Shown here in pieces: positions 2,882 through 63,956 of a stretch of 64,000 nt of DNA. This stretch comes from an uncultured Thioalkalispiraceae bacterium. Its GTDB lineage: Bacteria; Pseudomonadota; Gammaproteobacteria; UBA6429; Thiohalophilaceae. The position numbers and the translations under genes were made by a program. Location of the stretch: NCBI GenBank assembly GCA_964504295.1, contig CAZDEC010000007.1:664-64663 (forward strand). Reading direction: 5' to 3'. Below the pieces are notes generated by a model. That model saw only the letters and a list, made by a program, of their open reading frames with translations, searched no databases and was not told the DNA's origin. How positions within the stretch are numbered: position 1 is the first letter of the stretch; each line of letters begins with the position of its first letter.

Positions 2882-3023
2882 CAAAGGATTGTCCACGCCG
2901 GGTGCAGCCCAGCCTTGGTGTAAGATAAGTCCTACAAACATTTAGTCATTGTCCTACAAGACCTGGTGAGCGTGAAGAGGTATGATCATGTTCCTTTTGT
3001 AGGTCGCAGTAGATGGACAGTTT

Positions 3024-6847: not shown

Positions 6848-6848
6848 A

Positions 6849-7226
6849 ATGACATCTTTAATGAGCAGAATAAAAACCATACTAATAGCCGATGATGATA
6901 ATTTTATGCGACTTGCTCTAAAAAAAGTTTTAGAAAAAGATAATTACACTATTTTTGAAGCTGTCGATGGTAATGAGGCTATAGAAGTCTTTAATCTAAA
7001 TCAGCCAGATTGCGTCTTACTTGACGGTTTAATGCCCAACCTGGATGGCTTCGCAGCATGCAATCAGATTCGTGCTACTCAGCGTGGCAAAGCCGTACCG
7101 ATTTTAATTGTTTCTGGTTTAAGCCGGGAAGAAATTAAAGCGGATTACCCTGATACCCTTGTAACCGGTTATATTAGTAAGCCTGTTGATTGGGATAAAA
7201 TGTTGAAGAAAATTTCAAATTTATAG
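6849..7226 (+). CDS. Stand-alone CheY-like response regulator receiver
   Basis: IADDDNFMR...LLDGLMPNLDGF...ISKP. I prefer the ATG at 6849, right after the upstream TAA (6845-6847), over the TTG at 6831. Confidence 0.85.
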   Translation: MTSLMSRIKTILIADDDNFMRLALKKVLEKDNYTIFEAVDGNEAIEVFNLNQPDCVLLDGLMPNLDGFAACNQIRATQRGKAVPILIVSGLSREEIKADYPDTLVTGYISKPVDWDKMLKKISNL

Positions 7227-7252
7227 CGGCAATACAGGATGCTTTTAAGTAT

Positions 7253-7609
7253 TCATGATTTTTTTAAAACAGTATTGTCAAAATGCACATCACTCAAACT
7301 ATATTTTATCAATGTTCTAATATTTGCATGGTCGGTATTCTCCAAGTTGAGTAATACATCGTTACGGTAATATTTACCAAAACAGTTTAATGTTTCTTCT
7401 TTTGTTAAGCTATTCAGTTTAGCAAAAGCTAAAATTTTACAGGAACCTTCGTTCGTAGATGCTTCATTGATAACGATATCGTTATCTTGACCATTGTGAA
7501 ATCGTGATGGTGTGTAATGATATTCATTGTTAATGGTTTCAATCACCTGGTTAAATTGAACCTGGGTTGGGTTTTCTTTTAATAAAGTGAGTAATTCTGT
7601 CAGTAACAT
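7253..7609 (-). CDS. HopJ type III effector-family protein
   Basis: 118 aa. Overall resemblance to HopJ-family proteins (F..VI..I...Y.YTP..F.NG......N..G.N.GSCKI.AFA.L..L....TL.CFG.YYR). Lies 23 nt downstream of selO. Confidence 0.7.
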   Translation of the reverse strand: MLLTELLTLLKENPTQVQFNQVIETINNEYHYTPSRFHNGQDNDIVINEASTNEGSCKILAFAKLNSLTKEETLNCFGKYYRNDVLLNLENTDHANIRTLIKYSLSDVHFDNTVLKKS

Positions 7610-7632
7610 AACAAAGCCTGTAAATTTAATAG

Positions 7633-9087: not shown

Positions 9088-9198
9088 TGCGACACACTAA
9101 AATTAAAACCATATTTTAGTGTGAAAACTCTTTAAATGCTATCTTGATAAAACCAGAAATTTGTCGGGTTATGTATGAGTAACCCTGTAGAAGATAAG

Positions 9199-48251: not shown

Positions 48252-49157
48252 ATGCAGAAAAAAATCCCTATTACTTCCGAACAACAAGGACAGCGCCTTC
48301 AGGCCGCCGATTTAGTCTCCGGTGTTGTGCGACTAGTGTCTTTACCTGAAGTTTGTATTCGGGTTAACGAAATGATGGATGATGCGAGTACTTCGGCATC
48401 TGATATCGGCAAAGTCATTAGTCAGGACACCGGGCTGACGGCACGGCTACTCAAAATTGTAAACAGCTCTTTTTATGGTTCACCATCAAAAATTGAAACG
48501 GTCACGCGTGCGGTTACAGTTATTGGTTTACGTGAATTGCGTGGTTTAGTGTTAGCCGCTTCGGCGATTGAAACCTTTTCTAAAATTCCAAATGATATTC
48601 TCAATATGGTGCAGTTTTGGCGGCACAGTGTGTATTGTGGTGTGGTGGCGCAGTTATTGGCGGATCGGTGTCATGTTTTGCACTCTGAGCGACTGTTTGT
48701 AGCAGGCCTCTTACACGATATTGGCAAGTTAATTCTATGCCACCGCCTACCAAGCGAGTCGAAAATTGTGGTTGATAAAATGAAGCTGGATCAGCTAATG
48801 GATTTTGAAGTTGAGCGGGATATTATTGGCTTTGATCATGCAGATGTGGGTGGTGAGCTAATCAAGGCCTGGCAAATGCCAAGTTCTCTAGAGCAATCCA
48901 TTCGTTATCACCATGACCCCGCTAAAGCTGAAGAAATTTCAATGGAGACCTGTCTGGTACATATGGCCAATGTTATGACGGGTTGGGCCGAACAAGAGCT
49001 GGATGTGGATGTGGAGCTGAATATTCAGCCGATTGCGCAGGTAGCCTGGGATTTAACCGGTCTGGATGACTCGGTGATAGATCCTGTGCTGAAACAAGCC
49101 GGGCCATTGTTTATCGACGCTCTGGAGTCTATTTTGCCTCGTGGTCGACCGTATTAG
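48252..49157 (+). CDS. HDOD-domain signalling protein
   Basis: LPEVCIRVNEMMDD...ISQD.GLTARLLKIVNSSFYG....I.TV.RAVTVIGLRELR...AGLLHDIGKL.. ...GFDHADVGGELIK.W..P. Confidence 0.85.
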   Translation: MQKKIPITSEQQGQRLQAADLVSGVVRLVSLPEVCIRVNEMMDDASTSASDIGKVISQDTGLTARLLKIVNSSFYGSPSKIETVTRAVTVIGLRELRGLVLAASAIETFSKIPNDILNMVQFWRHSVYCGVVAQLLADRCHVLHSERLFVAGLLHDIGKLILCHRLPSESKIVVDKMKLDQLMDFEVERDIIGFDHADVGGELIKAWQMPSSLEQSIRYHHDPAKAEEISMETCLVHMANVMTGWAEQELDVDVELNIQPIAQVAWDLTGLDDSVIDPVLKQAGPLFIDALESILPRGRPY

Positions 49158-49189
49158 CCCGTTATTAACACGTCTCTTTTGGCCAATCA

Positions 49190-49206
49190 GGCACTAAAAT
49201 AGTGCT
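49190..49206. promoter_or_regulatory. NtrC-type enhancer-like palindrome upstream of amt
   Basis: gGCACTA-AAA-TAGTGCt, a perfect 6-3-6 dyad, compared with the remembered NtrC consensus TGCACYA-N3-TGGTGCA. Confidence 0.4.
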
Positions 49207-49282
49207 TTTTCCTGGATTTTCTCCTTTCGTTAAATCGTAGATTTACTTAATAAACCATCCAAAGCATAATATGTGCAATATA

Positions 49283-49298
49283 AGTGCATTTATGCACT
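49283..49298. promoter_or_regulatory. Second TGCA-containing palindrome upstream of amt
   Basis: AGTGCA-ttta-TGCACT, a perfect dyad, flanked by further TGCA(C) half sites (49272-49277, 49306-49311). Confidence 0.3.
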
Positions 49299-49373
49299 GT
49301 ATTTTTGCACCAAAATAATACAAATTATTAAACAATAAAAATGTCTGGAGATGCCTCCAGCATGGGAGAAGTC

Positions 49374-50558
49374 ATGGAAATTAAAACAGCAACTGATGTG
49401 CTCTTTATTCTGTTAGGAGCCATTATGGTACTCGCAATGCATTCAGGTTTTGCATTCTTAGAAGTGGGCACGGTGCGCAAAAAGAATCAGGTCAATGCAC
49501 TAGTTAAAATTATTGTCGATTTTGCTGTTTCAACCATCGGTTATTTCTTTATTGGTTATATGGTCGCCTATGGGCTTGGGTTTGGCGAGAGTGCTCAGGT
49601 TTTAGTACAAAAAAATGGCTATGAGTTAGTTAAGTTCTTCTTTTTATTGACATTTGCAGCAGCTATTCCGGCTATTATTTCTGGTGGCATTGCTGAGCGA
49701 GCGCGTTTTTACCCGCAATTGGTGGCGACTTTTTTTATTGTGGCTTTTATTTACCCGTTTTTCGAAGGTATTACCTGGAACGGTAATTTTGGTGTGCAAG
49801 CATGGATAGATAGCCAGTTTGGTGCCGAATTTCACGATTTTGCTGGTTCCGTGGTGGTGCATGCGATGGGTGGCTGGTTAGCCCTAGGTGCGGTTCTTTT
49901 ACTCGGTCGTCGATTGCCGAAGGGCGGTAGCCATTCCATTTCTCATCCTCCATCAAGCATTCCTTTTTTAGCCTTGGGCGCCTGGGTGTTAACCGTGGGC
50001 TGGTTTGGCTTTAATGTGATGTCTGCCCAAACCATTGATGCGGTCAGTGGTCTGGTGGCGCTGAATTCATTAATGGCGATGGTGGGCGGTATATTGGCCG
50101 CGTTGGTGGTGGGTAAGAATGATCCGGGGTTTGTGCATAACGGGCCATTAGCGGGTTTAGTTGCTGTGTGTGCCGGTTCGGACATTATGCACCCGATGGG
50201 CGCGTTGGTAACCGGACTGGTTGCCGGAGGACTGTTTGTTTGGGCGTTCACACAATGCCATAGCAAATGGAAAATAGATGATGTACTCGGTGTTTGGCCA
50301 TTGCATGGGTTATGTGGTGCCTGGGGTGGTCTTGCTGCGGGTATTTTTGGACTCGAAGCGTTTGGTGGTTTGGGCGGCGTGACCTTTATGTCACAGTTAG
50401 TGGGCACACTAATGGGGCTTTCTGTTGCGCTTGTAGGAGGCTTTGTTGTTTATGGTGTCATTAAAAAGATGGTAGGCATTCGTTTAACGGCAGAAGAAGA
50501 ACACATGGGTGCGGATTTAAGCATTCATAAAATTGCGGCTGAGTCGGATATTGACTAA
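49374..50558 (+). CDS. amt: Ammonium transporter (Amt family)
   Basis: GFAFLEVG, AERARF, FHDFAGSVVVHAMGGW.AL, GWFGFN and DDVLGVWPLHGLCGAWGG blocks. ATG 49374 (RBS GGGAGAA) preferred; 49341 and 49362 are possible. Confidence 0.92.
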   Translation: MEIKTATDVLFILLGAIMVLAMHSGFAFLEVGTVRKKNQVNALVKIIVDFAVSTIGYFFIGYMVAYGLGFGESAQVLVQKNGYELVKFFFLLTFAAAIPAIISGGIAERARFYPQLVATFFIVAFIYPFFEGITWNGNFGVQAWIDSQFGAEFHDFAGSVVVHAMGGWLALGAVLLLGRRLPKGGSHSISHPPSSIPFLALGAWVLTVGWFGFNVMSAQTIDAVSGLVALNSLMAMVGGILAALVVGKNDPGFVHNGPLAGLVAVCAGSDIMHPMGALVTGLVAGGLFVWAFTQCHSKWKIDDVLGVWPLHGLCGAWGGLAAGIFGLEAFGGLGGVTFMSQLVGTLMGLSVALVGGFVVYGVIKKMVGIRLTAEEEHMGADLSIHKIAAESDID

Positions 50559-50610
50559 TTTTTTATCAGAACAAATTAGCTAACTTGAACTGGGGATAAA
50601 AAACTTACGT

Positions 50611-50637
50611 CATTCCCGCCAAAGCCAGGCGGGAATG
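50611..50637. repeat. REP-like perfect hairpin between the convergent amt and nuoN-like genes
   Basis: CATTCCCGCC-aaagcca-GGCGGGAATG (10-bp stem). Same motif family as 21962-22058 and 29548-29702. Confidence 0.6.
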
Positions 50638-50697
50638 GCGCTATTGCTTGGTATAGGTGGAACGGATCTGTATAGGATCCATTATCCCTAACTCAGA

Positions 50698-52083
50698 TTA
50701 GCTCAATTGTTTAAGCAACAGCTGCGCTGCAAGCCCAATGCCGATGGTGAAGAGCAGCGCAATGACCCACACCAGCTTAATCAATGCCGGTGTGACCGTC
50801 GCAGTGCTCGTATCCACTGGTTCATGGCAATGACTTTGCGCCAGATACATTGGCACTATAATGCGCAGGTAAACGGCCAGTGACAATACGCTATTAAGAA
50901 TGGCGATAACGGTTAACCATAAAAAACCGGCATCAATTGCAGCACCAAAGAGTAAAAATTTACCGACAAAACCGGCCAGCGGCGGAATGCCTACCAGTGA
51001 TAAAAGGAATATCACCATGGCTACCCCCAACATGTGATTTTTGCGCCCAATACCTTTAAAGCTATCAAGCGTTCGACCCACTCGCATCACAACGGCAAAT
51101 GCCCCCAGGTTCATCGCAGCATAGGCGGCCGAAAATATAATTAAGGATTGCAGCGCGAGTGAACTCGCCCCCACCGCAACCACACCTAAAAGAAAATAAC
51201 CGGCCTGTGCGATGGATGAATAAGCTAGTAAGCGCACCACATTCTTTTGTACCAGTGCGGCGAGATAACCGTAGGTCATGGTAAGTACCGCAACCACGGC
51301 AATAATCAATGGCCAGCCTGTCGACAGCGGCATATCGCGTACGACCTGGGCAAAAGCCAGTATGGCACCAATCTTTGGTACAACAGATAAATAGGCGGCA
51401 ATGCAGAGCGGTGCGCCTTCGTATGCATCCGGTGCCCAAAAGTGAAACGGTACTAGTGATGCCTTGTAACCCAGGCCAATAATAACGGCAATAAAACCAA
51501 TAATGGCAATAACAGGCGAGGTTTCAAGCTGCCCCAGTTCACTCAGTAGTGTCGAGCCACTCCCGCCGAACCAGTAACTGAGCCCAAAAATCATAATACT
51601 GGTGGTGACCGAGCCAAACACAAAAAACTTTATCGCCGCTTCGGTCGCACTGTCATTTCGTGGGTAAGCCACCAGCGCAAAAGAAGCCAGGCCAGATAAC
51701 AAAACAGCCAGTACCAGTAACATGCTATCGCCCACACCGGCCATTAATATCGAACCCAGACTGACTAGCGTAACCAGAACATACACCGTACCTTCACGAT
51801 CACTACCGGCAAGTTCAGCGCGAGCTAATAGCAAAGACAGTATCGTTGCGGGCAGCAGGATAATTTTTCCCCATACGCTCAGCATATCAATGCGGAAAGT
51901 GCCACCAAAGACCGAGGTGTTCAGGCCAAGTAAAAGCACACTTTGCCATGTTGCCAGCAATAGCCCAACGATAGTCACGGTCAGCACAATTCGTGGGGCA
52001 CGCAGCATCTCGGCAATTAAGGCAAACACCACCGTAAGTAGGATGATGATCTCAGGGATCAGTAAGGCAAGATCTGTTTCCAT
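50698..52083 (-). CDS. Complex-I NuoN/ND2-like antiporter-type subunit
   Basis: 14-TM-like profile. KASLVPFHFWAPDAYEGAP (conserved Lys/His block of Mrp-type subunits). 1-nt start/stop overlap with the M-like gene. Confidence 0.85.
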   Translation of the reverse strand: METDLALLIPEIIILLTVVFALIAEMLRAPRIVLTVTIVGLLLATWQSVLLLGLNTSVFGGTFRIDMLSVWGKIILLPATILSLLLARAELAGSDREGTVYVLVTLVSLGSILMAGVGDSMLLVLAVLLSGLASFALVAYPRNDSATEAAIKFFVFGSVTTSIMIFGLSYWFGGSGSTLLSELGQLETSPVIAIIGFIAVIIGLGYKASLVPFHFWAPDAYEGAPLCIAAYLSVVPKIGAILAFAQVVRDMPLSTGWPLIIAVVAVLTMTYGYLAALVQKNVVRLLAYSSIAQAGYFLLGVVAVGASSLALQSLIIFSAAYAAMNLGAFAVVMRVGRTLDSFKGIGRKNHMLGVAMVIFLLSLVGIPPLAGFVGKFLLFGAAIDAGFLWLTVIAILNSVLSLAVYLRIIVPMYLAQSHCHEPVDTSTATVTPALIKLVWVIALLFTIGIGLAAQLLLKQLS

Positions 52084-53558
52084 TACAATGGCAACGCTAT
52101 GGTGGTTTTATGGATCACATCCAGCACCCAGGCTGGCGCGACACCCAGCGCAATGGTGAAGACCAATAATGGTGCCAATGCAAGTAGTTCACGCGCATTC
52201 AAGTCAGGCATGGTAGCCGTTGTCCACTTATCTCCAACTTCGCCAAGAAACACCTGTGCTATCGCTCGTAAATATAAACCGGCGGTAATAACGATACCGA
52301 GAATAGCAATAATGGCTATAGGCTCAACCTGCAATGTGGCGAGGAAAATCTGAAACTCTGCCGGGAAATGCGCCAGCCCGGGTAAACCCAGCGAAGCAAA
52401 CGCAGCCAGCACAAACGACCAGCCGAGCACCGGTACGACTTTCATTAAACCACCAAACTGATCCATGTCTCTTGTGTGGGCTCGATCCTGCAACATCCCA
52501 ACCAGCAAGAACAACGCGCCTGTCACTAAACCGTGACTGACCATTTGTAATACTGAACCATCTAACGCGGTGGCACGAATGGCGGGATCCGCTGCCAGTG
52601 CGGCAACCGCCACGCCAATAATGATATAGCCCATGTGATTAATTGAGGTATAAGCCACCAGTCGTTTGAGATCCGTTTGTGCCAGCGCGGCAAAAGCGCC
52701 GTACAATGCTGCAATTACCCCGAATACTAAAATCACTACCCCCGCTTCGCGAAAGGCATCTGGCGTCATTTGATAAGCAAACCGCACCAGACCATAGGTG
52801 CCGAATTTCAACATCACACCGGCTAAAATTACACTGCCTGCAGCCGGTGCTTGAACATGTGCGGCAGGTAACCAGGTATGAAATGGAAACACCGGCGTTT
52901 TAACCGCAAAGGTAATCAGCATGGCAATCAATGCAAGCATAGCCGCAAGTCCATCTAAGGGTGGGTTACTGATCCAGACACGCATGTCGAATGTATATGG
53001 GTCACTGCCGAGGTATAAACCCAGAATCGCCAGCAATAATGGCAGGCTGCCAAGGAAGGTATAAATAAAAAACATCAGCGCGGCACGTTGTCGGTCTTCG
53101 TGCCCCCATTGTGCAATCATAAAATACATGGACACCAGTGACACTTCAAAGAAAACGTAAAATAAAATTGCGTCCAGTGCAGTGAAGGCACCGATGGATG
53201 CCGTCTCTAACAGCAGCATCAATGCAACAAAAGCATGTGACTGCTTACGTACTTTGGCAGAATAAATAAAGGTGACAAAAAACAACAACGCAGTTAGCAG
53301 CACTAGCGGTAAGCTAATACCATCCACACCCACCCGGTAGGCCGCACCAATCGAAGGCATCCAGTCAATTTGTTCGAGCTGGGCAAAGCCGGTATCACTC
53401 ACACCACGTGACCACATCACCAGTGCACCCAGCAAAGTCACACCACTGATGACGATACCAATAGCATGAACAACTTGTGGCGATGACTTGCGCATAAGCA
53501 ACACCAGCAATGCCCCAAGCAAAGGTAGAAAGACAGTAATCGATACAATTGGATACAC
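52083..53558 (-). CDS. Complex-I NuoM/ND4-like antiporter-type subunit
   Basis: FFEVSLVSMYFMI (TM5 Glu), KTPVFPFHTWLPAAHVQAP, SINHMGY, VSHGLVTGALFLLVG. Confidence 0.88.
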   Translation of the reverse strand: MYPIVSITVFLPLLGALLVLLMRKSSPQVVHAIGIVISGVTLLGALVMWSRGVSDTGFAQLEQIDWMPSIGAAYRVGVDGISLPLVLLTALLFFVTFIYSAKVRKQSHAFVALMLLLETASIGAFTALDAILFYVFFEVSLVSMYFMIAQWGHEDRQRAALMFFIYTFLGSLPLLLAILGLYLGSDPYTFDMRVWISNPPLDGLAAMLALIAMLITFAVKTPVFPFHTWLPAAHVQAPAAGSVILAGVMLKFGTYGLVRFAYQMTPDAFREAGVVILVFGVIAALYGAFAALAQTDLKRLVAYTSINHMGYIIIGVAVAALAADPAIRATALDGSVLQMVSHGLVTGALFLLVGMLQDRAHTRDMDQFGGLMKVVPVLGWSFVLAAFASLGLPGLAHFPAEFQIFLATLQVEPIAIIAILGIVITAGLYLRAIAQVFLGEVGDKWTTATMPDLNARELLALAPLLVFTIALGVAPAWVLDVIHKTTIALPL

Positions 53559-53573
53559 TAAAAAGTCCTCTTA

Positions 53574-55448
53574 TTAATAAACTATCAATGCGATTAAGCT
53601 GATCACTAAAATCATCGCGCTGGCAATGGTACTGATAGCCAGCTCTTTATGAATCAAACCGCTTTGTAAGGTGCGAGCCTTGCCGGCAAATTTGACTGTG
53701 CTGTCTACAAACGAAAAGATAAAGCCATCAATACCTTTATCATCCGTTCGGCGCGCGACTCGACCGAGTTTAAGTCCTGCTCGACCTATCGCGAGTACGC
53801 CTTCATAAAAAATGCGTTCCAGTTTTTCGCAACCATGAGCAATTGCCATAGCCGGGCGCACCATTAAATTATCGAAACCACCGGCAAGCGCAAAACCGTT
53901 ATTCACCCAGGGTAATAAGCCCCCAAGTAAACGCTGCACAGGAACAAACCAGCCTAAAAACAAACCACTTAAGGCAGCAATTAGCCCGAGTATTTCGGGA
54001 AGAAATTCAGTCGATATGTTTTCGACCTGTGGCATGTTCAGTAATGATTTAAGTGCCGGGAAAGCCGCCGCTAAAACAACCGCCAGCGTGACTAGCCCGG
54101 CCAACCCTGCGCCCATCCAGACGAGACCGGCAAGCGGTTTGTTTTGGGTATTTTTTTGTTCCTGATTTTTATAGCTTTGATTTTTATAGCCTTGATTTTT
54201 ATACCAAAGTATCGATAAGGCTCTAGCCATATAACCGCCCGTTAACAACGTACCCGCCAAAGCAAACGGTAACAGTATTTCGAAATATTCAGCGTTCAGC
54301 GATGCCGCAATAATTGCATCTTTAGAGAAAAAACCACTTAGAGGTGGAATACCGGCTAATGCCAGTGCCGCCAGCGCAAAGCCAATAAATATTCTAGGGC
54401 GCTCATGTCCAACGCCGCGTAATTTTTCCAGCATTGTGCTTTCGCGGCTGTGCTGGAAGACACCGGCACCGAGAAACAGGCTGCTCTTAATGGCGGCGTG
54501 AGCAATCAGGTGTAGCAATGCCGCCATAGGCACGCCCGCACCCACCGCCACCAGCATCAAACCATATTGACTGGAAGTGGATGCAGCCAGCATGCGCTTA
54601 AGATCCGATTCACCCAGTGCAATAAGGCCTGTTACCACGGTGGTCACCCCGCCAACAATACCGATAACCAGTAATGTTTCTGGTGTTAACATCGGTGCAG
54701 TGCGAATTAATAAAATGGCACCGGCTGCAACCAGCGTGGCCGAGTGTAATAAAGCCGATACTGGTGTTGGACCGGCCATTGCGCGTTGTAACCAGTCATG
54801 CAACGGGGTTTGTGCGGACTTACCCATGGCCGCAATCAATAATAATAAGCCAGCAGCCATGGCAGGGTTGCCGCTGGTATTGAGTGTTGCTGCAATTTCA
54901 CTGCTACCGGTGTTGGCGATAAGAATAAACACAGCAATATAAAGACCCAAATCGGCGCTGCGAGTGACCATAAAGGCGCGTGTAGCCGCAGATTTTACCC
55001 CCGGCTTTTTATACCAGAAACCAATCAGTAAATAGCTGCTTAGGCCAATCAGTTCCCAGGCCGACAGTAACAGGATCCAGTCGCCGGCAAGTACCAGTGT
55101 TTGCATGGCTGAAATAAAGAGCAGCATGGTGGCAAAAAAGCGCACTTTTTCGCTATCAGATTTCATATAACCTACGGCATAAATCAGCACAAAACTGCCG
55201 ACGATTGTGACCATGGTTGAAAGTAAGGCGGTTAAAGGTGTCGCGATTAAACGCAGAGGCATATTGGGTAAGCCGGGCAGCAGCAGTTCAGCATTAACAC
55301 CACTTGATACATTAAACAGTAAGGCTAAACTGGCAATCAGGCCTAAGGCAATACCAAATAATGCTAACAGCACCGGAAGTCGGCGTACTAACAGTATTAA
55401 GACAGATGCGGCAAGTGGAGCCAAAATAGCAACGGTAATAAAACTCAT
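53574..55448 (-). CDS. Complex-I NuoL/ND5-like antiporter-type subunit with C-terminal extension (lateral-helix region) and a YKNQ repeat insertion
   Basis: WELIGLSSYLLIGFWY, GKSAQTPLHDWL..AMAGPTPVSALLHSATLVAAG, HAAIKSSLFLGAG. 624 aa. Confidence 0.88.
   Translation of the reverse strand: MSFITVAILAPLAASVLILLVRRLPVLLALFGIALGLIASLALLFNVSSGVNAELLLPGLPNMPLRLIATPLTALLSTMVTIVGSFVLIYAVGYMKSDSEKVRFFATMLLFISAMQTLVLAGDWILLLSAWELIGLSSYLLIGFWYKKPGVKSAATRAFMVTRSADLGLYIAVFILIANTGSSEIAATLNTSGNPAMAAGLLLLIAAMGKSAQTPLHDWLQRAMAGPTPVSALLHSATLVAAGAILLIRTAPMLTPETLLVIGIVGGVTTVVTGLIALGESDLKRMLAASTSSQYGLMLVAVGAGVPMAALLHLIAHAAIKSSLFLGAGVFQHSRESTMLEKLRGVGHERPRIFIGFALAALALAGIPPLSGFFSKDAIIAASLNAEYFEILLPFALAGTLLTGGYMARALSILWYKNQGYKNQSYKNQEQKNTQNKPLAGLVWMGAGLAGLVTLAVVLAAAFPALKSLLNMPQVENISTEFLPEILGLIAALSGLFLGWFVPVQRLLGGLLPWVNNGFALAGGFDNLMVRPAMAIAHGCEKLERIFYEGVLAIGRAGLKLGRVARRTDDKGIDGFIFSFVDSTVKFAGKARTLQSGLIHKELAISTIASAMILVISLIALIVY
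54163..54207. repeat. 15-bp tandem repeat x3 inside the NuoL-like gene, encoding YKNQ(G/S)YKNQSYKNQ
   Basis: TGATTTTTATAGCTT / TGATTTTTATAGCCT / TGATTTTTATACCAA, read directly on the + strand. Confidence 0.9.
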
Positions 55449-55756
55449 CCTTTCAAATCCACCGCTTCTTCCATCTCGACCGAACCCTTGGCGCGGAAGC
55501 GGGCAATGGCTATTGCAAAGCCCACGGCCATTTCAATGGCCATCACGGTCATAATAATCAGCACAAACATTTGCCCGGCTGCCACTTCTGGATGCAGATA
55601 ACGCCAGAAGGCCACTATATTTACCATGGCACCGGCAAGAATAAGTTCCACCCCCATCATAATCATCACTAAATTGGTTTGTGATAATGCACCGTAAACC
55701 CCTACGCCAAATAAGGCTGCACCTGCGGTCAGTGCAATGATTAATTCCATACTCAT
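55445..55756 (-). CDS. Complex-I NuoK/ND4L-like subunit
   Basis: Three TM helices with both membrane-embedded Glu (GVELILAG; AIEMAVGF). 4-nt overlaps on both sides. Confidence 0.88.
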   Translation of the reverse strand: MSMELIIALTAGAALFGVGVYGALSQTNLVMIMMGVELILAGAMVNIVAFWRYLHPEVAAGQMFVLIIMTVMAIEMAVGFAIAIARFRAKGSVEMEEAVDLKG

Positions 55757-56274
55757 TTTTTGCCACTCTCTTTTTTAACAGGTTGAATAGCAACGGCGGT
55801 GGCTGCAATCATCGCGGTTAAAATCGTGATGCCAGCGGTTTCAAAAATCAGCATGGAGCGATCCAGTAGTTCAAGACCGAGATCGACCGTTTGTTGTGCC
55901 GCATCCGGGAAGGTGGTGGCCACGGGGCCCCAGTCGACGAACACTGCTATTGCCACCGCGCCGACAAACGAAACAAAACCGGCGATAAGAGACAATCGTT
56001 TTTGGTGGGTCATATCCATTTCACCCAGACCGCCAGGGTCCATCATAAACATCACCATAAAGATGGCCATAATGCTCATTTCGGTTGCCATCATCATAAT
56101 TTGTAACACACCTAAAAATTCGGCCTGCATGCTTAAAAACATCGCGCCCAGTGCGGTCTGAGAAAATAGCAAAGCGATGGCTGAACGCATCATGGAAAAA
56201 GTGCGGAACACCACAATGCCAAACCACACCGAGGCGAGCCCAAAAAAACCAATAAAAAATGCCTGTGCTGTCAT
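55753..56274 (-). CDS. Complex-I NuoJ/ND6-like subunit
   Basis: 173 aa. The N-terminal three-helix pattern resembles NuoJ (…AIALLFSQTALGAMFLSMQAEFLGVLQIMMMATEMSIMAIFMVMFM). Position between the H-like and K-like genes. Confidence 0.75.
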   Translation of the reverse strand: MTAQAFFIGFFGLASVWFGIVVFRTFSMMRSAIALLFSQTALGAMFLSMQAEFLGVLQIMMMATEMSIMAIFMVMFMMDPGGLGEMDMTHQKRLSLIAGFVSFVGAVAIAVFVDWGPVATTFPDAAQQTVDLGLELLDRSMLIFETAGITILTAMIAATAVAIQPVKKESGKK

Positions 56275-57186
56275 TTAGGGAAACTCCAGTACCAGTACGC
56301 CAACAATAAAAATATTCAGCAGTGCTAACGGGATGCCGATTATCCAGCACCATGAAAGTAAATGCGCTTCACGAATACGTGGCATATAGCGACCGATGAG
56401 TAACATGGCCATGGTAACGGCCAGTATTTTAATTGCGCTCCATGCCCAGGGGGGTAATTCAAAGCCGAACAAATTAAATCCTTGCCAACCACCCAGGTAA
56501 AAAATAACCGTAGCGGCTGCCAGTGTAACGATCAAAACCAGTCGCCCAAGTCGGAAGATGGCCAACCGCATACCGCTGTATTCTGCTTCTATACCACCAG
56601 CGAGTTCACCTTTTGCAATCATCATGTTGAACGGCGGTAAAAATGCCAGTGCCATCGAGGCGACAAAAAATAATATAAAGCCCAGTGGTTGATAGGCAAT
56701 GTTCCACAGGTCGGCTTGTGAAACCACAATTTGTGTTGTTAATAATGATTCAGCACGCATGGCAACGGCAGTAATTGGCATTACAATCAGCATCGCATAG
56801 GCAATGAGTTGCCCCAGAAAACGCCAGCCGCCAATCATGGCATAAGCTCCATCTGGTCCCCAACCTGCCATCAGCAAAGCCACTAGAACATACACCAGTG
56901 CGGCATTAATAAATAATGCACCGGTGGCAAGGTCGGTGATGATTAAATCGGGTGTGAGCGGGATAACCGCCGCCGCCAGCACCGCCGACAAGAGTAAAAG
57001 CACCGGGCCAGCTTCATAAAAAATTTTATCTGGTTTGCGTGGGATAAACGATTCCCGCCCTAAAAAAGCAACCGCGGCAAAAAGGGGCGCACTGAGTTGG
57101 AAGCGGCCTTTGCTGATCCAGTCTTCGAGTACGGCAACAAAATAGGCGCCCAACAGTAAAAAAAATAAAATAAGAAAAGTGTTCAT
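56275..57186 (-). CDS. Complex-I NuoH/ND1 (HycD/EchB)-like subunit
   Basis: [29 protein letters not shown] matches the PFD..E.E.EL..G...EYSG block. The N-terminal ERK..Q.R.GP block of bona fide NuoH is not recognisable. Confidence 0.8.
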
Positions 57187-59111
57187 TGACGTATCTCCCA
57201 GGGAGATAAATCCAGTGAGCCAACCGTAACCAGCGCGTCACCGAGTTCCTGTTGATCGGTGAGTTGTTCAATGAGCGTCAGGTGTTGTGTTGAGGGTGTT
57301 TCAAGTTGTGCCGAGGTTACTTTCCCTTTATTCAGGGTTAATTGCAGAGTGGCTTGTCCGCGTGGTGTTTCAATCACGGCTTGTCCATCACCGCTGACAG
57401 TATCAGTATTATTGGTGACTGAAACCGTGGCGCTGTTCGAGATAGCTGCTTTTTGTATCAGTTCAATGCTTTGTTTGATTTCGTCCAGCCGAAGTTGCAA
57501 GCGCGCATAAACGTCACCGTTTGTTGCGGTAACCGCGGCGAATCCAAGTTCACTGTAAAGTTTGTTATTGTTTCGTGCGTCCATGTTTATTCCTGCCGCA
57601 CGTGCAACAGGGCCGAATACAGTCAGCTCTGTCTCTGTTGGCAACCTGCCTATACCCTGGCTGCGGGATTTTAATAAAGGGGTGCGTTGCAATTGTTTAG
57701 TTAAATCCTGAACGGCTTTTTTCAAATGGGTGACTTGTTGGATATTTGCCTGCATAAACGACTGCTGCAATGATGAAGCACGCTGCTTTAACCAGTCAAA
57801 ACCGGTTTGTTCTGCAAATAAGGTCAGCCAGCTTAGATGACTAACAATGCGTTCTCTTTCCAGTACAACAAGCCGGACTTTAGCCGTGCTGGTTTCAACC
57901 TTGATGCTGGCAGCATCTTCAATCGCTAAACAGGCCAGCAGCCGATAACTGTTTGGTGCAAGCGGATCCAGAGTAGTGAGTTTTTCAATAAAATCACTGG
58001 CGGGGATGGGATGACATAGTAATGACTTGTTTCCAACCAGCGTCGTCGTCTTTGCCGCAGCAACCGTATCGCCATCAAGTGTAAATGTCAGTAATAAACC
58101 CGCTGGTAAGCCCGGAAAAAAAGGTCCAAATGGTACGTCGAGCCAGTCCATAGGTAAACCATCACCGCTACGTGGCAGATTTTTGGTCACATCAATCATC
58201 GACATAAAGCCGGAATCATCGTGGTTCATACCGGATTCCATTTCAGCGTGATCATGACGGCTACTTTGAGGTTCACGTGGCTCTAAATTCATGCCGCATT
58301 CAGGGCAGGAACCGGGTTCACTTTGCACCACTTCCGGGTGCATGGGGCAAGTGTATTCAACCGCCGCATGATCCATATGTTGATGATCCTGCTGTGCTTC
58401 TATTTCACGTGGCTCTAAATTCATGCCGCATTCAGGGCAGGAACCGGGTTCACTTTGCACCACTTCCGGGTGCATGGGGCAAGTGTATTCAACCGCCGCA
58501 TGATCCGTATGTTGGGGATCATGAGAAGAATGATCGTTACTTTCCGTGTTTGGTTCAGTATGACTATGCGGAGCATTAGCCTGTACTTCACGCGGCATCA
58601 GGTTCATGCCGCATTTCGGGCAGGAGCCGGGTTCATCCTGAATTACTTCCGGGTGCATAGGGCAAACATACTCAATGCGAATTTGTAAAACCGGCGCATC
58701 AAAATCTGATACATCAGAATGAAAAGCACTCTTCGCAAGAGTTTTACGCAGTTGGTTAACTCCCTCAACAAGTTCCTGTTGTGAAAGGCCAGCGGTAATA
58801 TCAGCGGTAGGTAAGGGTAATAAATCTGTTGTTGATGTTGTCAGGTTAAACAAAACACGTGGTCGGGGCATTTGTGCATAGATCACCGCCGCTGCGTCGC
58901 GTAATGCCGCGGGCATATCACCCGCAATAAGTAAAACACTGGCGTGGCGAGGACTCGCCACAATGTTGATCCCGGCCGCTTCAATATCTAACCCGTAAGC
59001 ACGTGTGATTTCTGTCCCCGGCACAACATAGACGCCCAGATCCTGAGACATCGAAAAAGAGACTAACCGCTTTAATGCGGATATTGTTCCCTGTCGAGCA
59101 CCGGCGATCAT
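57183..59111 (-). CDS. Fusion protein: cysteine-free NuoB-like domain + three HMBD (CPMHPE...CPxCGM) heavy-metal-binding zinc ribbons + ligand-less NuoD/HycE-like domain
   Basis: B-like: [42 protein letters not shown] x3: Y(V/T)CPMHPEV(I/V)Q(D/S)EPGSCP(K/E)CGMNL(M/E)PRE. D-like: [53 protein letters not shown]...[22 protein letters not shown] upstream of ATG 59111. Confidence 0.85.
58272..58514. repeat. 132-bp (44-codon) near-perfect tandem duplication spanning HMBD modules 2 and 3
   Basis: The sequence from 58272 is repeated from 58404: 103 identical nt, one A/G mismatch (58375 vs 58507), then 7 more identical nt. Confidence 0.95.
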
Positions 59112-59123
59112 TTATTATCTTCC

Positions 59124-59486
59124 TTATTGTCTACGTAGCGCACCCTGACTCCAGCCGTATAACAAACCTAAAAATAAAATCGCCAGAAAAACGCCCATAT
59201 CAAGCAAGGCTACAATTCCGACCTGTTTATAAACAACCGCCCACGGATACATATATGCCATTTCCATATCAAAGGCTAAAAACAATAGGGCATAACCATA
59301 ATAACGTGCATGATAACGAACCCAGACCGGGTCGCGAGATAGTTGCCCTGCCGTTGCAGGTACATCTTTGCCAGGTTCCTGTCGCGCTTTGCCAAAACTG
59401 CGGCCAATGGCGTATATGGATAAAACAAAGCCCACGGTACCGACGACTAAAGCCAGTAATAACCCATATTGCTGCAAGCTGCTCAT
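59124..59486 (-). CDS. Complex-I NuoA/ND3-like subunit
   Basis: Three TM helices. LFLAFDMEMAYMYPWAV matches the NuoA FD(V/I)E..FL(F/Y)PWA block. First gene of the operon. Confidence 0.85.
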   Translation of the reverse strand: MSSLQQYGLLLALVVGTVGFVLSIYAIGRSFGKARQEPGKDVPATAGQLSRDPVWVRYHARYYGYALLFLAFDMEMAYMYPWAVVYKQVGIVALLDMGVFLAILFLGLLYGWSQGALRRQ

Positions 59487-59655
59487 TTTAAATATCCCCT
59501 TGTTATTTTTATATTGTATGGTGTAAATAACCTTACGAATATTAGCTTTATCTGGATGAGTTAAAATAATACTAACGGTGTACTCTGTCTAGATTGAATG
59601 ATATTTTATAGAAGGTCAATTCTTTTACTGCTTAAATGGAAATCTATCCGACTCT

Positions 59656-60840
59656 ATGTCTGTGCACCCTTCATCGAATCAAGGCAATTGTAATATAGAC
59701 GAGTCTGACACCCGCTTTAGAAATATTATTCCTGCCATGAGCACTCCACTGGCATCTATTTTTGGTAGTGGCTTTCTGGTTGTTGTTCCTATTCTGGCAA
59801 GCGCTGTTGGCCCTTATGCAATACTGGCCATGGTGGTGGTTGCCATTGTCGCTTTTTTAGTCGGTAAAATTGTTCGGCATAATATTTTATGTGCTGAGCC
59901 AGTACTGGCAAAGGGTAGTCAAAAATTTACCGTTATAATTGAACGACTTTCAGACTTTGCACTGGTGGCAGCTTATGTGGTTTCGGTATGCCTCTATATA
60001 CATATATTATCGTCTTTTGTTCTTTCCAGCTTCGAGCTGGATAATACGTTTAATAACAGTTTGATGACCTCGATAATAATAGGTGTTATCACTGTTATTG
60101 GTTTATTTGGTGGCTTAAAACCACTGGAAAATCTGGAGCGCTGGGCACTTTTTATTACGCTTATTATTCTTGCCGGGTTATTAGTTTTATTTGCAGTTTA
60201 TGATGTTAAACAGTTTTTATCGCAAGGATACTTTTCTTTACCTGAAATGCCGCAGCGAAGTGGCTGGGAAATTATTACCATTGTTGCCGGTACTTTAATC
60301 GTGGTGCAGGGCTTTGAGACAACCCGCTACCTGGGTGAAACATTTGATACGCTTACTCGTATTCGAGCTTCACGCTGGTCGCAATATTTTTCGTTGAGCG
60401 TTTACGTTATATTTGTTGCTTTAGCGATGCCTATTGTTTCGGTATTGAATGGGAATTATGCAGAAAACAGTCTGATAACGATAGCGGCAACGGCTTCTAT
60501 TTTATTACCTCTGCCGTTGATTATTGCAGCCAGCCTGTCACAGTTTTCGGCCGCGGTGGCCGATACATTGGCCGCAGCAGCTAATATGCAGGAAGCCAGT
60601 CAGCAACGCCTGAATACTCGTTGGGGGTACCTAATGGTGGGGGTATCGGCAATGGCTTTGGCATGGTCGGGGTCTACCTTTGAAATTATTACCCTAGCTT
60701 CAAGGGCCTTTGCTTTTTATTATTTACTACAGTGTCTGGTTGCCTTTAGTGTTTGCCGCAATATTCGTGAACGTATTTTATTCGGTTTTATTGCATTTAT
60801 TCTGGGCTTTGTTTTGTTGTTTGCAGTGCCTGCAGGTTAA
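59656..60840 (+). CDS. Polytopic (about 11-12 TM) permease-like membrane protein, possibly APC-superfamily-like; substrate unknown
   Basis: Hydrophobic periodicity throughout. N-terminal ...PLASIFGSGFLVVVPILA resembles the APC first-helix G-rich motif. Divergent from the nuoA-like gene. Confidence 0.65.
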   Translation: MSVHPSSNQGNCNIDESDTRFRNIIPAMSTPLASIFGSGFLVVVPILASAVGPYAILAMVVVAIVAFLVGKIVRHNILCAEPVLAKGSQKFTVIIERLSDFALVAAYVVSVCLYIHILSSFVLSSFELDNTFNNSLMTSIIIGVITVIGLFGGLKPLENLERWALFITLIILAGLLVLFAVYDVKQFLSQGYFSLPEMPQRSGWEIITIVAGTLIVVQGFETTRYLGETFDTLTRIRASRWSQYFSLSVYVIFVALAMPIVSVLNGNYAENSLITIAATASILLPLPLIIAASLSQFSAAVADTLAAAANMQEASQQRLNTRWGYLMVGVSAMALAWSGSTFEIITLASRAFAFYYLLQCLVAFSVCRNIRERILFGFIAFILGFVLLFAVPAG

Positions 60841-60843
60841 AGC

Positions 60844-60875
60844 TTGACATATGTGTTACACATAGGATGTATGCT
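60844..60875 (+). promoter_or_regulatory. Candidate MerR-family-type promoter with a dyad operator inside an over-long -35/-10 spacer
   Basis: TTGACA (60844-60849) + 20-bp spacer containing the perfect dyad TATGTGT-t-ACACATA (60850-60864) + TATGCT (60870-60875). Lies upstream of the YHS gene. Confidence 0.4.
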
Positions 60876-60997
60876 TTATTTAATGTTAAATAAAGCTAAG
60901 CTGACTTTTTAGATAGCTCGGATGAAATAAGGTGTCATCCGGGCTACGGTTAAAACAAGTTTTTTTCGTTAAATTAAATCAACAAAGGAGAGACATC

Positions 60998-61165
60998 ATG
61001 GTTACCGATCCAGTATGTGGTATGACAATTGAAGAAACTAAAGCGGCAGCGACAGAAGAGTATCAGGGCACAACCCTGTATTTTTGCTCAGATAGTTGTC
61101 ACAGTAAATTTCAGGCAAATCCGACTCAATATGTAAAGGCTGAAACGACATCTGATTCTGCGTAG
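60998..61165 (+). CDS. YHS (TRASH-type) metal-binding domain mini-protein, 55 aa
   Basis: DPVCGMTIEE......EYQGTTLYFCSDSCHSKFQANP is the YHS signature. ATG 60998 has a strong RBS (AAAGGAGAGacatcATG). The GTG 60932 extension is rejected. Confidence 0.85.
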   Translation: MVTDPVCGMTIEETKAAATEEYQGTTLYFCSDSCHSKFQANPTQYVKAETTSDSA

Positions 61166-61187
61166 TAGACAGGTTTCGATAGAATAT

Positions 61188-61236
61188 GGGCATCATTCGG
61201 AATATATATAGAATTTATCTTTCCGTTATGATGCCC
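61188..61236 (+). terminator. Long imperfect hairpin after the YHS gene (possible terminator)
   Basis: GGGCATCATTCGGAA ... TTCCGTTATGATGCCC followed by GTTTCCTT. Weak T tract. Confidence 0.35.
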
Positions 61237-61351
61237 GTTTCCTTATAGCTATATTGTTTTATCAGGCTTTTTCCAATGCTTGAAATGTAAATTATTAAAG
61301 CCCGAGACATTGTTGCCGATATCAATACCGACAACTTGGGAATGTTTTAAC

Positions 61352-62470
61352 GTGGAAAAAGCAACAACAATATTAGCGGTGGATGATGACGAAGATATCC
61401 TCAATCTTTATCGTTTACATGCCGAAGAACAGGGTTATAAAATTTTCGTTAGCAGTAGTGCCGTTAAAGCGCTGGCGATTCTTGAGCAGGATAAGGTCGA
61501 TTTAATTATTTCAGATATTTTAATGCCTGATTTAGATGGCTATGAATTTTGTCGACAAGTAAAAGAAAACCCGAAAACACAAAAAATTCCCTTTGTATTT
61601 GTTTCTGCTATGACTTCATTAGAAGAGCTGGTGACTGGCTATGGTTTGGGAGCGGATGACTATCTTACAAAACCCATTGAGCATGAACAGTTTCTTTTAA
61701 AAATTAAACATATCTTATCAGTGAGCAAAAAAAATGAAGAAGTTCAGGAACAATTAGATACTTATTATAAAACGGCTATGCAGGCCATGAATTATTCAAG
61801 TGAAATGGGTGTCATACTCGAATTTTATAAAGTTTGCGTTGCAGCGAAGTCTTTTAGAGAATTAGCAAATTATATTTTTATGACAATGAAGCAGTTAGAA
61901 CTTTATTGTTCTTTTCAGATTTATGATTTAAACGGACAGGCAATGGGTTATACGGAGCAAGGAGAGATCCCGCCACTCGAGACTGATATTATGTTACTAG
62001 CAAAAAAACAGTCTCGATTTTATGATTTTGGTGTACGGACTATTGTGAGCTACGATAACTTCTCCTTGCTTATAAAAAATATGCCGGTTGAGGATAAGGA
62101 AAAATACGGTCGATTAAAAGATATTTTAGGCACACTTTGTGATGCAATTAGCTCCCGCGTTGAGGTATTACTGACAAACGATTCTTTAATGCAAAAACAA
62201 CAGGTTGTTGAAAGTGTCAGTGTAACCATTATGGATGTTGATTCGTCTTTTTCGCAGTTACAGAAACAGAATGTAACTGCAATTGAAAATATGCTGGAAC
62301 AGATTGAAGAAGCCCTACTTATTTTGGGGTTAACTGAATTTCAGGAAGAAAATGTTCTGGGTATTGCCAAAAAATGTTTAGCTGAAACGAATAAAGCCTT
62401 TTATGAAGGCGTAGAGATTAATTGTAAGCTTGAGAAGCTTCGAGAACAGTTGAGTACAATATTGAACTGA
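61352..62470 (+). CDS. REC receiver + about 250-aa uncharacterised C-terminal domain (paralog A)
   Basis: ILAVDDDEDIL...IISDILMPDLDGYEF...FVSA...DDYLTKP. A GTG start at 61352 gives 372 aa, exactly the length of the downstream paralog, and aligns VEKATTILAVDDD with MSRKTTILAVDSD. Confidence 0.8.
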   Translation: MEKATTILAVDDDEDILNLYRLHAEEQGYKIFVSSSAVKALAILEQDKVDLIISDILMPDLDGYEFCRQVKENPKTQKIPFVFVSAMTSLEELVTGYGLGADDYLTKPIEHEQFLLKIKHILSVSKKNEEVQEQLDTYYKTAMQAMNYSSEMGVILEFYKVCVAAKSFRELANYIFMTMKQLELYCSFQIYDLNGQAMGYTEQGEIPPLETDIMLLAKKQSRFYDFGVRTIVSYDNFSLLIKNMPVEDKEKYGRLKDILGTLCDAISSRVEVLLTNDSLMQKQQVVESVSVTIMDVDSSFSQLQKQNVTAIENMLEQIEEALLILGLTEFQEENVLGIAKKCLAETNKAFYEGVEINCKLEKLREQLSTILN

Positions 62471-62568
62471 TTGGAGTCTATACGATGTCAAAATAGAATT
62501 GTTCCCCGCTAAAGTTAGCAACGTTAATGCCGCTATCAACATTAATGATTTGGAAATAATTTAGCTCT

Positions 62569-63687
62569 ATGAGTAGAAAAACAACTATTTTAGCGGTTGA
62601 CAGCGATAATGAGGTTTTGAGATTGTACCGTCAACACGCTCAGGATCAGGGCTATCAGACCGTGGTTGCGAATGATGCTGAAACAGCACTCACTATTTTG
62701 CAACAAGTGAGTGTTGAGTTGATTATATCGGATGTTCATTTCCCAGGGCTTGACGGGCATGAGTTTTGTCGTCAAGTGAAAGCAATTGATAAAACCAGAA
62801 ACATCCCTTTTATTTTCGTTTCAACCGTTACTGAACTCGATGAGTTAGTGAAAGGATATTCTTTAGGTGCGATTGATTATATTCCTAAACCGATTATTTA
62901 TGATGAACTAATATTAAAAGTTAAATCTCTGGTAAAAACGTTTCAACACAATGGTCAGGCTGTAGAACAGTTAGAGGCTCATCACAAGGTTGCCATGGAG
63001 GCAATGTCTTATTCAAGTGAGTTAGGTCAGGTACTTGAATTTTACAAAGCATGCGAAGCGTCAAAGGCATTAGACGATTTAGCTAATTTTCTGTTTGTCA
63101 CTACCAGCACTCTGGGGCTAAGCTGTTCGTTACAGATTTATTCAGACAATAATCAATCTATTGGCTATAGCCATTCGGGCTCACTTTCACCTATTGAATC
63201 AGAAATTATGCTCGCTGCGCGCAACCAGCCGCGATTTTTTGATTTTGGTAAACGCACAATCCTTAATTACAAGCGTTTTTCTTTGTTAATTAAAAATATG
63301 CCAATTGATAACCCTGAAAAATATGGTCGTATAAAAGATATTTTAGGTTCTCTTGCCGATGCGCTTGAGTCGCGTATGGATGTTTTATTATTTCGCAGTT
63401 CTGTCAAACAAAAACAAAATGTAGTGGATATGGTTGGCAATACGATGATGGACATTGATTCATCTCTTATGAATTTGCAAAAAGAAAATGTAGCCGCACT
63501 TGATGATATGATAGAAAATCTGGAGGAGGCATTATTAATACTCGGTTTAACCGAGCATCAGGAGAATAGTATTATGGATATTTCAAGAACTTGTTTAAGC
63601 CGAATTAACAATGCTTTTTATGTGGGCGTCGGAATTTCTGAAAAGCTTGAAGCATTGCGTCTGCAGTTGGCTAAGACGGTTGATTAA
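62569..63687 (+). CDS. REC receiver + about 250-aa uncharacterised C-terminal domain (paralog B)
   Basis: ILAVDSDNEVL...IISDVHFPGLDGHEF...FVST...IDYIPKP. The C-terminal domain is colinear with paralog A (LEFYK, FSLLIKNMP, EKYGRIKDILGSL, EEALLILGLTE). Confidence 0.85.
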   Translation: MSRKTTILAVDSDNEVLRLYRQHAQDQGYQTVVANDAETALTILQQVSVELIISDVHFPGLDGHEFCRQVKAIDKTRNIPFIFVSTVTELDELVKGYSLGAIDYIPKPIIYDELILKVKSLVKTFQHNGQAVEQLEAHHKVAMEAMSYSSELGQVLEFYKACEASKALDDLANFLFVTTSTLGLSCSLQIYSDNNQSIGYSHSGSLSPIESEIMLAARNQPRFFDFGKRTILNYKRFSLLIKNMPIDNPEKYGRIKDILGSLADALESRMDVLLFRSSVKQKQNVVDMVGNTMMDIDSSLMNLQKENVAALDDMIENLEEALLILGLTEHQENSIMDISRTCLSRINNAFYVGVGISEKLEALRLQLAKTVD

Positions 63688-63740
63688 ATGATGAAATAAC
63701 TTAAATATATTTTGCTGTTGCGTGTATCAATATTCTTTGC

Positions 63741-63956
63741 CTAACGATTTTTTAGTTCATCCTCATAATTCATACTTTTATTTTTTTTATTAAGCATCTG
63801 CTTGAGTTTTTCGGCTTCTTTTAAGGCTTGAAAAGCATTCGTTGTTTTCGTTTTTAGTTGGCTGTTGTTTTTATTTTTACTCATGGGAGTAAAAACAGAT
63901 TGATACAAGACGGCAACTAAAATAACCAGGCTGAGTAATAAGCTTAAAAACTTCAT
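63741..63956 (-). CDS. Small membrane-anchored/secreted Lys-rich hypothetical protein
   Basis: N-terminal hydrophobic helix MKFLSLLLSLVILVAVLY, then a low-complexity K/N-rich tail. No homology recognised. Confidence 0.35.
   Translation of the reverse strand: MKFLSLLLSLVILVAVLYQSVFTPMSKNKNNSQLKTKTTNAFQALKEAEKLKQMLNKKNKSMNYEDELKNR

Follow-up and report, generated by a model that had tools for sequence, protein, structure and literature searches.

A PF27187 permease and a stand-alone YHS protein as a putative accessory module of copper stress beside an HMBD-bearing complex-I-like operon

Bacterial copper handling is generally attributed to P1B ATPases, RND pumps, multicopper oxidases, and CopZ-type chaperones, and Nramp/MntH illustrates that the LeuT fold is able to carry transition-metal ions by means of a few side chains in transmembrane helices (TM) 1 and 6. 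Two descriptions are close to the locus considered here. In Marinobacter atlanticus, a complex-I-like nuoADHJKL cassette lies within copper-resistance genes and is co-expressed (Eddie et al. 2021, PMC8233155), and the YHS domain of P1B ATPases and of a Mycobacterium phlei adenylyl cyclase has been proposed as a copper-sensing or copper-binding module (PMC4626032). Here we analyze the flank of an operon that is a redox-dead complex-I look-alike, in a 64,000-nucleotide stretch of an uncultured Thioalkalispiraceae bacterium (assembly GCA_964504295.1, contig CAZDEC010000007.1, positions 664 to 64,663 of the forward strand), hereafter called the window. The Marinobacter cassette has neither the nuoM nor the nuoN of this operon, and its description mentions neither of the two kinds of flanking gene that concern us, which encode a permease and a YHS mini-protein.

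On balance, we lean toward reading this flank as an accessory module within a gene set for copper (thiophilic-metal) stress, neither a random neighbor nor an obligate subunit of the complex-I-like machine. The copper-island module is real but facultative, and the permease is an optional part of it. Its best-founded part is the YHS protein, which combines a Cys3/Met domain with a MerR-type promoter common to it and copA. The permease belongs to a subclade with a Cys/His signature, which is the only part of family PF27187 found in copper-resistance neighborhoods; the HMBD complex-I-like operon is its commonest neighbor there, and operon, permease, and YHS gene form a block of ~10.5 kb that holds together within the genus. 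The elements of the locus are as follows.

50698–59486, minus strand: complex-I-like operon of eight genes, nuoA, a NuoB–HMBDx3–NuoD fusion, nuoH, nuoJ, nuoK, nuoL, nuoM, and nuoN (Pfam)
59124–59486, minus strand: nuoA-like gene (Pfam Oxidored_q4, E = 3e-24)
59487–59655: AT-rich gap between the divergent nuoA and permease genes, 169 bp, 28% GC (sequence)
59656–60840, plus strand: permease, 394 amino acids (aa), PF27187 (APC_Aq_097), of the subclade with invariant Cys/His (open reading frame, Pfam label, model)
60844–60875, plus strand: MerR-type promoter/operator of the YHS gene, TTGACA, 20-bp spacer with the dyad TATGTGTtACACATA, TATGCT
60915–60945, plus strand: hairpin in the YHS leader, within an insertion of ~100 bp (locus comparison)
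60998–61165, plus strand: stand-alone YHS protein, 55 aa, putative Cu(I)-binding mini-protein (Pfam YHS, E = 4.9e-15)

An earlier note, made from the sequence alone, had described a permease of about 11–12 membrane helices, divergent from nuoA across a shared 169-bp region and followed by a bare 55-aa YHS protein, and all of this was borne out: the coordinates are those listed above, an AlphaFold model of the permease shows ~11 membrane helices, and the YHS domain and its short form are supported by Pfam and by orthologues. The remark in the note that no ATPase is present applies to the window, which encodes no P-type ATPase, but not to the source genome, where a 912-aa CopA-type P1B ATPase with three YHS and two HMBD domains is found on another contig (C38). 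Two response-regulator genes follow the YHS gene in the window. The 169-bp gap is kept in the same-genus loci L001 and L002, including a TTGACC element that resembles a −35 box and faces nuoA.

The YHS protein matches PF04945 with 55.7 bits against a cut-off of 30.3. Translation is assigned to the ATG at 60998, preceded by the ribosome-binding site AAAGGAGAG, and orthologues of 52–56 aa back this short form. The orthologue alignment shows invariant C7 and C30 and near-invariant M9 and C34 (at least 90%), and we take the protein, which has three Cys and one Met, to be a metal-binding mini-protein of the cytoplasm. It shares PF04945 and the pattern CGM...FCS..C with the YHS domains of the P1B ATPases and the M. 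phlei cyclase (PMC4626032); unlike those domains it is free-standing and has a metal-type promoter of its own, rather than being fused to an enzyme. The likeness to CopZ consists in a small Cys-rich cytoplasmic protein with an operator in common with a pump, the difference being that the domain here is YHS and not the HMA/CopZ fold. Orthologues with 77–85% identity adjoin the permease on the longer contigs that we looked up; the underlying word-based search, run with a short query, returned 13 proteins and is a sample rather than a census.

The promoter of the YHS gene begins three bases past the permease stop codon and has the architecture of MerR-type promoters, in which the −35 and −10 elements stand 19–20 bp apart with a dyad in the spacer. 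An over-long spacer of 20 bp with a dyad recalls the CueR/MerR regulon (copA and cueO of Escherichia coli), as does the presence of the same site 5′ of a merR-family gene that is followed by a CopA-type ATPase. The CueR box reads ACCTTCC-N7-GGAAGGT, whereas the half-sites here are TGTGT/ACACA, or ACCTGTG-N7-CACAGGT in locus L088. In five loci with the YHS gene after the permease the operator is kept almost base for base, with the rest of the spacer diverged or carrying insertions. A degenerate 32-nt pattern of the operator, constructed from these five promoters, matched once in the window and in none of 100 shuffles of it; across the genus it matched one to three times per genome (10 sites in all; zero with the reversed control).

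In three genomes of the genus, namely the source genome (G000, with contigs C38, C95, and C14), G004, and G005, one of these operators is the YHS promoter and another lies ~1.5 kb upstream of the CopA-type ATPase, at a merR–copA locus. On C38 of the source genome the operator is followed by a 139-aa MerR-family gene and then by genes for a Rieske protein, a glutaredoxin-like protein, CopA itself (912 aa), small membrane and YHS proteins, and CTI, a fatty-acid cis/trans isomerase. The window itself contains no merR gene, and the MerR-family protein of C38 is the candidate regulator; in contrast to CueR proper, it scores best against the NCBIfam models for ZntR and MerR, followed by CueR, all below their cut-offs. 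As the operator of the YHS gene is that of the merR–copA locus, the YHS gene is most likely induced along with that for the Cu(I) efflux ATPase, presumably through activation by the MerR-family protein. We infer Cu(I) as the metal and a chaperone-like role for the YHS protein, which would probably buffer Cu(I) or hand it over.

The same operator stands 5′ of the multicopper oxidase–copB genes in locus L010, and in L025 it is found ~360 nt upstream of nuoA of the complex-I-like operon, with no open reading frame (ORF) between; L025 is the sole locus with the operator in the nuoA–permease gap. In the source genome, a copy with one mismatch lies 5′ of an FAD-dependent oxidoreductase of the geranylgeranyl-reductase family (C95:4606–4637), and a weaker copy 5′ of a cyclopropane-fatty-acid synthase (C14:59368). 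An ICMT-like membrane methyltransferase is encoded 1.7 kb upstream of the former site (C95:2218–2889) and is 70% identical to one that lies beside MerR and YHS genes in L046. Loci L082–L084, with the gene order Glu-synthase-like, permease, YHS, and phospholipase-D-like (PLD-like), have a spacer of 76 bp between the permease and YHS genes, with neither a −35 element nor the dyad. The ~100 bp that separate the −10 element from the ribosome-binding site in the window (60876–60975), including a hairpin with an 11-bp stem, are present in the window and L002 only and absent from L001, L018, and L020; this stretch is therefore a lineage-specific insertion outside the conserved control region.

To interrogate the surroundings of the permease, we used it as the query to retrieve 80 genome loci, searched these with the window proteins, and clustered the neighboring ORFs, which were called in a simple manner (longest ORF, greedy removal of overlaps). 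Many of these loci are short metagenome contigs, so that absence of the operon is certain only where whole genomes were compared and in a few of the loci, and the tallies count loci and not independent evolutionary events. The HMBD complex-I-like operon lies within 10 kb of the permease in 17 of 35 loci of the close clade (window included), compared with none of 46 loci of distant clades. The arrangements differ: the permease is divergent from nuoA in the window and in L001, L002, L022, L025, L028, and L030, tail-to-tail with nuoN in L007, L011, L013, L014, and L026, and 2–7 kb from the operon in L005, L010, L018, and L020, and in L019 (= G109) it follows nuoN directly on the same strand after a gap of ~30–65 bp, like a ninth gene of the operon. 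On the permease tree these arrangements are scattered, with examples in Gammaproteobacteria and Alphaproteobacteria alike.

By our tally, at least one metal gene is found nearby in 24 of the 35 close-clade loci versus 2 of the 46 loci of distant members. The neighbors include CusCBA (L006, L009, L015), multicopper oxidase with CopB (L010, L013, L014, L017), MerR (L007, L011, L074), and HMBD-bearing P-type ATPases (L046), and YHS or YHS–HMBD mini-proteins recur beside close-clade permeases. In L022, a CopZ-like HMA protein of 81 aa (MKTEILKVSGMSCSGC..., 2880–3130, minus strand) is encoded directly upstream of nuoA, in the interval that separates it from the permease. The neighbors of distant family members are too heterogeneous to suggest a substrate for the family as a whole. 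A distant homologue in Aquifex (L070) is divergent from nuoA of an ordinary-looking nuo cluster, which we take to be a single coincidence.

The linkage was also assessed in 400 genomes sampled evenly from the class, in which a match to the fusion protein with E < 1e-100 was counted as a true orthologue and one with at least 74% identity as a close permease. The fusion protein was found in 11 genomes, the close permease in 9, and both in 5, in every one of which the two genes lie on one contig within ~15 kb (Fisher's exact test, P = 6.6e-7, or 1.3e-5 if two genomes of one genus are counted once). Ten other operon loci were fetched and inspected. In G185, which lacks the permease, the MerR-type operator and a YHS gene stand right beside nuoA, followed by multicopper oxidase–copB; in G109, MerR, YHS–HMBD mini-proteins, and an ICMT-like gene lie beside nuoA; four of the ten have no recognizable neighbor.

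Within the genus, the gene order in the window (48252–63956) is HDOD, amt, the block of operon, permease, and YHS gene, two tandem response regulators, and a 72-aa gene, and that in G004 (L098, G004:C45) is HDOD, amt, one response regulator, the block, and the 72-aa gene. The ~10.5-kb block is intact in both and the response regulators stand on opposite sides of it, and the block therefore behaves as one unit. Genome G001, which is 99% complete, has no complex-I-like operon, and its permease (L100, G001:C5, 9980–10968) is a truncated pseudogene in three ORFs, with the changes G37A and C112S. The pseudogene lies between an operator–MerR–Rieske unit and a run of Glu-synthase-like, CTI, CopZ-like, and CopA-like genes, and two short fragments that tentatively resemble nuoN are found nearby at 6342–6460.

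The permease itself had been placed by the earlier note in no recognized family, and this stands for our local Pfam and NCBIfam scans, in which nothing but a sub-threshold match to DUF373 was obtained; it does not stand for the precomputed annotation, which labels the window permease and 120 of 120 homologues among the matches listed as PF27187, a new family named APC_Aq_097 on 394-aa orthologues. Membership is here that of the precomputed label, the PF27187 model being absent from the local Pfam copy. An exhaustive homologue search (E ≤ 0.001) gave 781 clusters at 50% identity, none with a functional name, and the literature yielded no publication on aq_097. The AlphaFold model, built on 47 family members (pLDDT 88, pTM 0.87), has helix breaks in TM1 at residues 40–42 and in TM6 at 218–219, and Foldseek assigns it to the APC/LeuT fold with probability 1.0 to ApcT, LAT1/2, AdiC, NKCC1, and KimA, all matches being at 10–19% identity. 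The best match is ApcT of Methanocaldococcus jannaschii (TM-score 0.73–0.77, 18–19% identity), followed by LAT1/2, b0,+AT, and AdiC (~0.7), NKCC1/NCC (0.66–0.71), KimA (0.66–0.68), and Nramp (0.56).

With ApcT the permease shares, besides the fold, broken TM1 and TM6 helices with conserved motifs at the breaks. It differs in having no match to an AA_permease hidden Markov model (HMM), ~11 helices in 394 aa as against 12, a Pfam family of its own in which no member is characterized, and six invariant Cys/His residues in its subclade, which ApcT-type carriers are not known to require. A search of PDB sequences with a profile of the 47 family members found no match with E up to 10. AA_permease_2 (PF13520) did not match the window permease at threshold and matched 2 of the 47 members weakly (best E = 8.7e-5), and hhalign of the family with the source genome's own PF13520 APC permease gave a colinear alignment with a probability of 0.7%, in which FGSGF of TM1 and QGFE of TM6 align with GxG- and GFE-type motifs. 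On the question, raised in the earlier note, of whether the permease belongs to an amino-acid transporter family, the result is thus intermediate: the tie by sequence is marginal and no amino-acid-permease HMM passed its threshold, but the fold is that of the APC superfamily and the structural neighbors are amino-acid transporters. An Nramp-like permease was considered and rejected, given the TM-score of 0.56, the lack of a match to any Pfam/Nramp HMM, and the motifs FGSGF in TM1, where Nramp has DPGN, and QGFET in TM6.

Family-wide invariant residues are found at the TM1 break (S38, G39), in TM3 (Y107, S110, Y114), at the TM6 break (Q218, G219, F220, E221, T222), in TM8 (S295, Q296, S298, D303), and in TM10 (S349, R350, Y355, Y356, Q359); helices 1, 3, 6, 8, and 10 are those that form the substrate site of the LeuT fold. 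The close clade, 33 sequences with at least 68% identity to the window permease, is separated from the rest of the permease tree by a branch of 1.35 changes per site with support 100/100. H75, C79, C112, H116, C360, and C367 are invariant in all 33 of its sequences and variable or absent elsewhere, forming the pairs HxxxC (TM2), CxxxH (TM3), and Cx6C (TM10). Relatives with 45–57% identity mostly have F75, a variable residue 79, C/S112, H116, C360, and S367, and those with 33–45% identity have A/T112, R116, G/T/A360, and A367. The in–out topology usual for this fold would place H75, C79, C360, and C367 in the half toward the cytoplasm. As far as residues can tell, the clade-specific Cys/His set argues for a direct involvement of soft metal, as substrate or as regulator, whereas the family-wide pocket and the structural neighbors argue for an amino-acid-like, amine, or hard-cation substrate. 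The permease would most likely carry a thiophilic metal ion or a metal–ligand species, or else the usual substrate of its family under metal or thiol control; we infer this substrate, the direction of transport, and a hand-over by the YHS protein from the observed fold, signature, and neighborhood statistics. A bolder proposal, which we consider unlikely, is that the Cys/His subclade represents LeuT-fold carriers of a new kind, for Cu(I)/Ag(I) or Cu-thiolate, loaded from the cytoplasm by the YHS protein and working alongside the HMBD complex-I-like machine. If true, copper would have a gradient-driven route that relies on neither P-type ATPases nor RND pumps.

Several observations weigh against an accessory copper-stress module, and some of them would fit a history in which permease and YHS gene are passengers of a recombination-prone resistance island with no functional tie to the operon. 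Co-location could result from shared residence on a shuffling island instead of shared mechanism. The permease is missing from 6 of the 11 operon genomes, including the complete, single-contig G185, so it does not accompany the operon as a subunit would, and the operon is missing from 4 of the 9 permease genomes; linkage is thus ~50% in either direction, and the neighborhoods are heavily shuffled. The YHS gene directly follows the permease in some lineages only, which speaks against a fixed three-part machine, and the close orthologues in L027 and L029 lie amid housekeeping genes (metE, leuA, and ribonucleotide reductase). The MerR-type operator of the YHS promoter was not found by pattern scan in the 169-bp nuoA–permease gap of the window, and co-regulation of the permease is therefore unsupported by promoter sequence. 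The GC content at third codon positions is 0.43–0.53 in the operon genes, 0.37 in the permease, 0.32 in the YHS gene, and 0.32–0.33 in the response regulators, a contrast from which the operon may have a history different from that of its flank. We nevertheless regard mere passengers as distinctly unlikely, since permease and operon remain adjacent in at least three gene orders and across two proteobacterial classes, with the permease closely behind nuoN on the same strand in L019/G109, the enrichment is strong (P ~1e-6), the block remains intact within the genus while flanking genes move, and operon and permease were lost or decayed together in G001. On the question, also raised in the earlier note, of linkage to such operons in other genomes, the 17 of 35 loci and the co-occurrence statistics speak for a link of the permease, with the reservation that more than half of the operon genomes do without it; the note's single functional island is favored by the linkage and the shared operator and contradicted, as a fixed unit, by permeases without the operon and by the patchy position of the YHS gene.

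The substrate of the permease leaves room for two further explanations. It may be a carrier of ordinary organic solutes of small size (amino acids, amines, or organocations; candidates are ethanolamine, choline, polyamine, cysteine, and histidine), its link to the island being indirect through ligand supply or membrane-lipid remodeling under metal stress, in which case the Cys/His residues might be regulatory or structural. This view, which we hold to be possible though doubtful, draws on the nearest solved relatives, amino-acid transporters (ApcT, LAT1/2, AdiC) at 18–19% identity with Nramp a poorer match, on the alignment of the TM1 and TM6 motifs with those of the same-genome APC permease, and on the weak AA_permease_2 matches. 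None of the family-wide invariant residues is Cys, His, or Met; they are Ser, Tyr, Gln, Glu, Asp, Arg, and aromatics, they also occur in PF27187 members outside any metal context, and C112 and H116 would, by helical periodicity, face a side of TM3 different from that of the invariant Y107, S110, and Y114, all of which weighs against the copper-module reading. The pocket is rich in Tyr/Phe and Glu/Asp, which we take to suit an organic cation by analogy with APC and BCCT carriers. Genes of lipid enzymes lie beside the permease (CTI in at least six loci, ICMT/PEMT-like in five, and phospholipase-D-like genes), and some orthologues adjoin metE or leuA. An organic solute leaves unexplained, however, why the six-Cys/His subclade alone sits in metal islands and why the permease gene has decayed in G001, the sister genome from which the operon was lost, and the amino-acid-permease HMMs stayed below threshold, with an hhalign probability of 0.7%. 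Far less credible still, we find a carrier of inorganic ions (K+, Na+, NH4+, or Cl−) of the KUP or cation-chloride type, balancing charge for an ion-translocating complex-I-like module. NKCC1, NCC, and KimA rank high in the structural comparison (TM-score 0.66–0.71), and the invariant Tyr/Ser/Thr/Glu/Asp pocket resembles the hard-cation site of the KimA structure, a lead and not a test; but amino-acid carriers match at least as well, and such a carrier would give no reason for the Cys/His signature or for copper genes beside permeases without the operon, as at the CusCBA loci L006, L009, and L015.

Read as an accessory copper-stress module, the flank may add three things to the usual picture of copper handling: an uncharacterized transporter family in which one branch, marked by its Cys/His signature, is the only one found in copper islands; a YHS protein that stands alone and would be among just two or three targets of a MerR-type regulator; and regulatory and neighborhood evidence that ties a redox-dead complex-I-like operon to copper. 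The 32-nt operator, the candidate regulator, and the six residues offer experimental handles, which bear on what the complex-I-like machine is for.

The CTI gene (Pfam CTI, E = 1e-263) recurs beside the permease, the complex-I-like operon, or the copA cluster (L005, L007, L010, L011, L014, L019, L084, L089, L092, and C38:81–2519 in the source genome), and ICMT/PEMT-like methyltransferase and PLD-like genes recur in the same neighborhoods; the gene set thus seems to extend to membrane-lipid remodeling. A membrane protein with a DUF4396 domain and a tail rich in His and Asp is encoded near both close and distant family members (L015, L016, L057, L058), and in L057 and L058 it is accompanied by a conserved 77-aa ORF directly beside the permease. 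A literature search on HMBD–NuoB/D fusions returned no paper. The number of HMBD repeats in the NuoB–HMBD–NuoD fusion varies from 1 to 10 HMM hits: in L002 (G005, 6604–9462) the fusion occupies a 953-aa frame with 10 HMBD hits, and in L001 (G004, 6986–9474) it is split within the repeat array into overlapping frames of 473 and 454 aa, the result of either a frameshift or an assembly slip.

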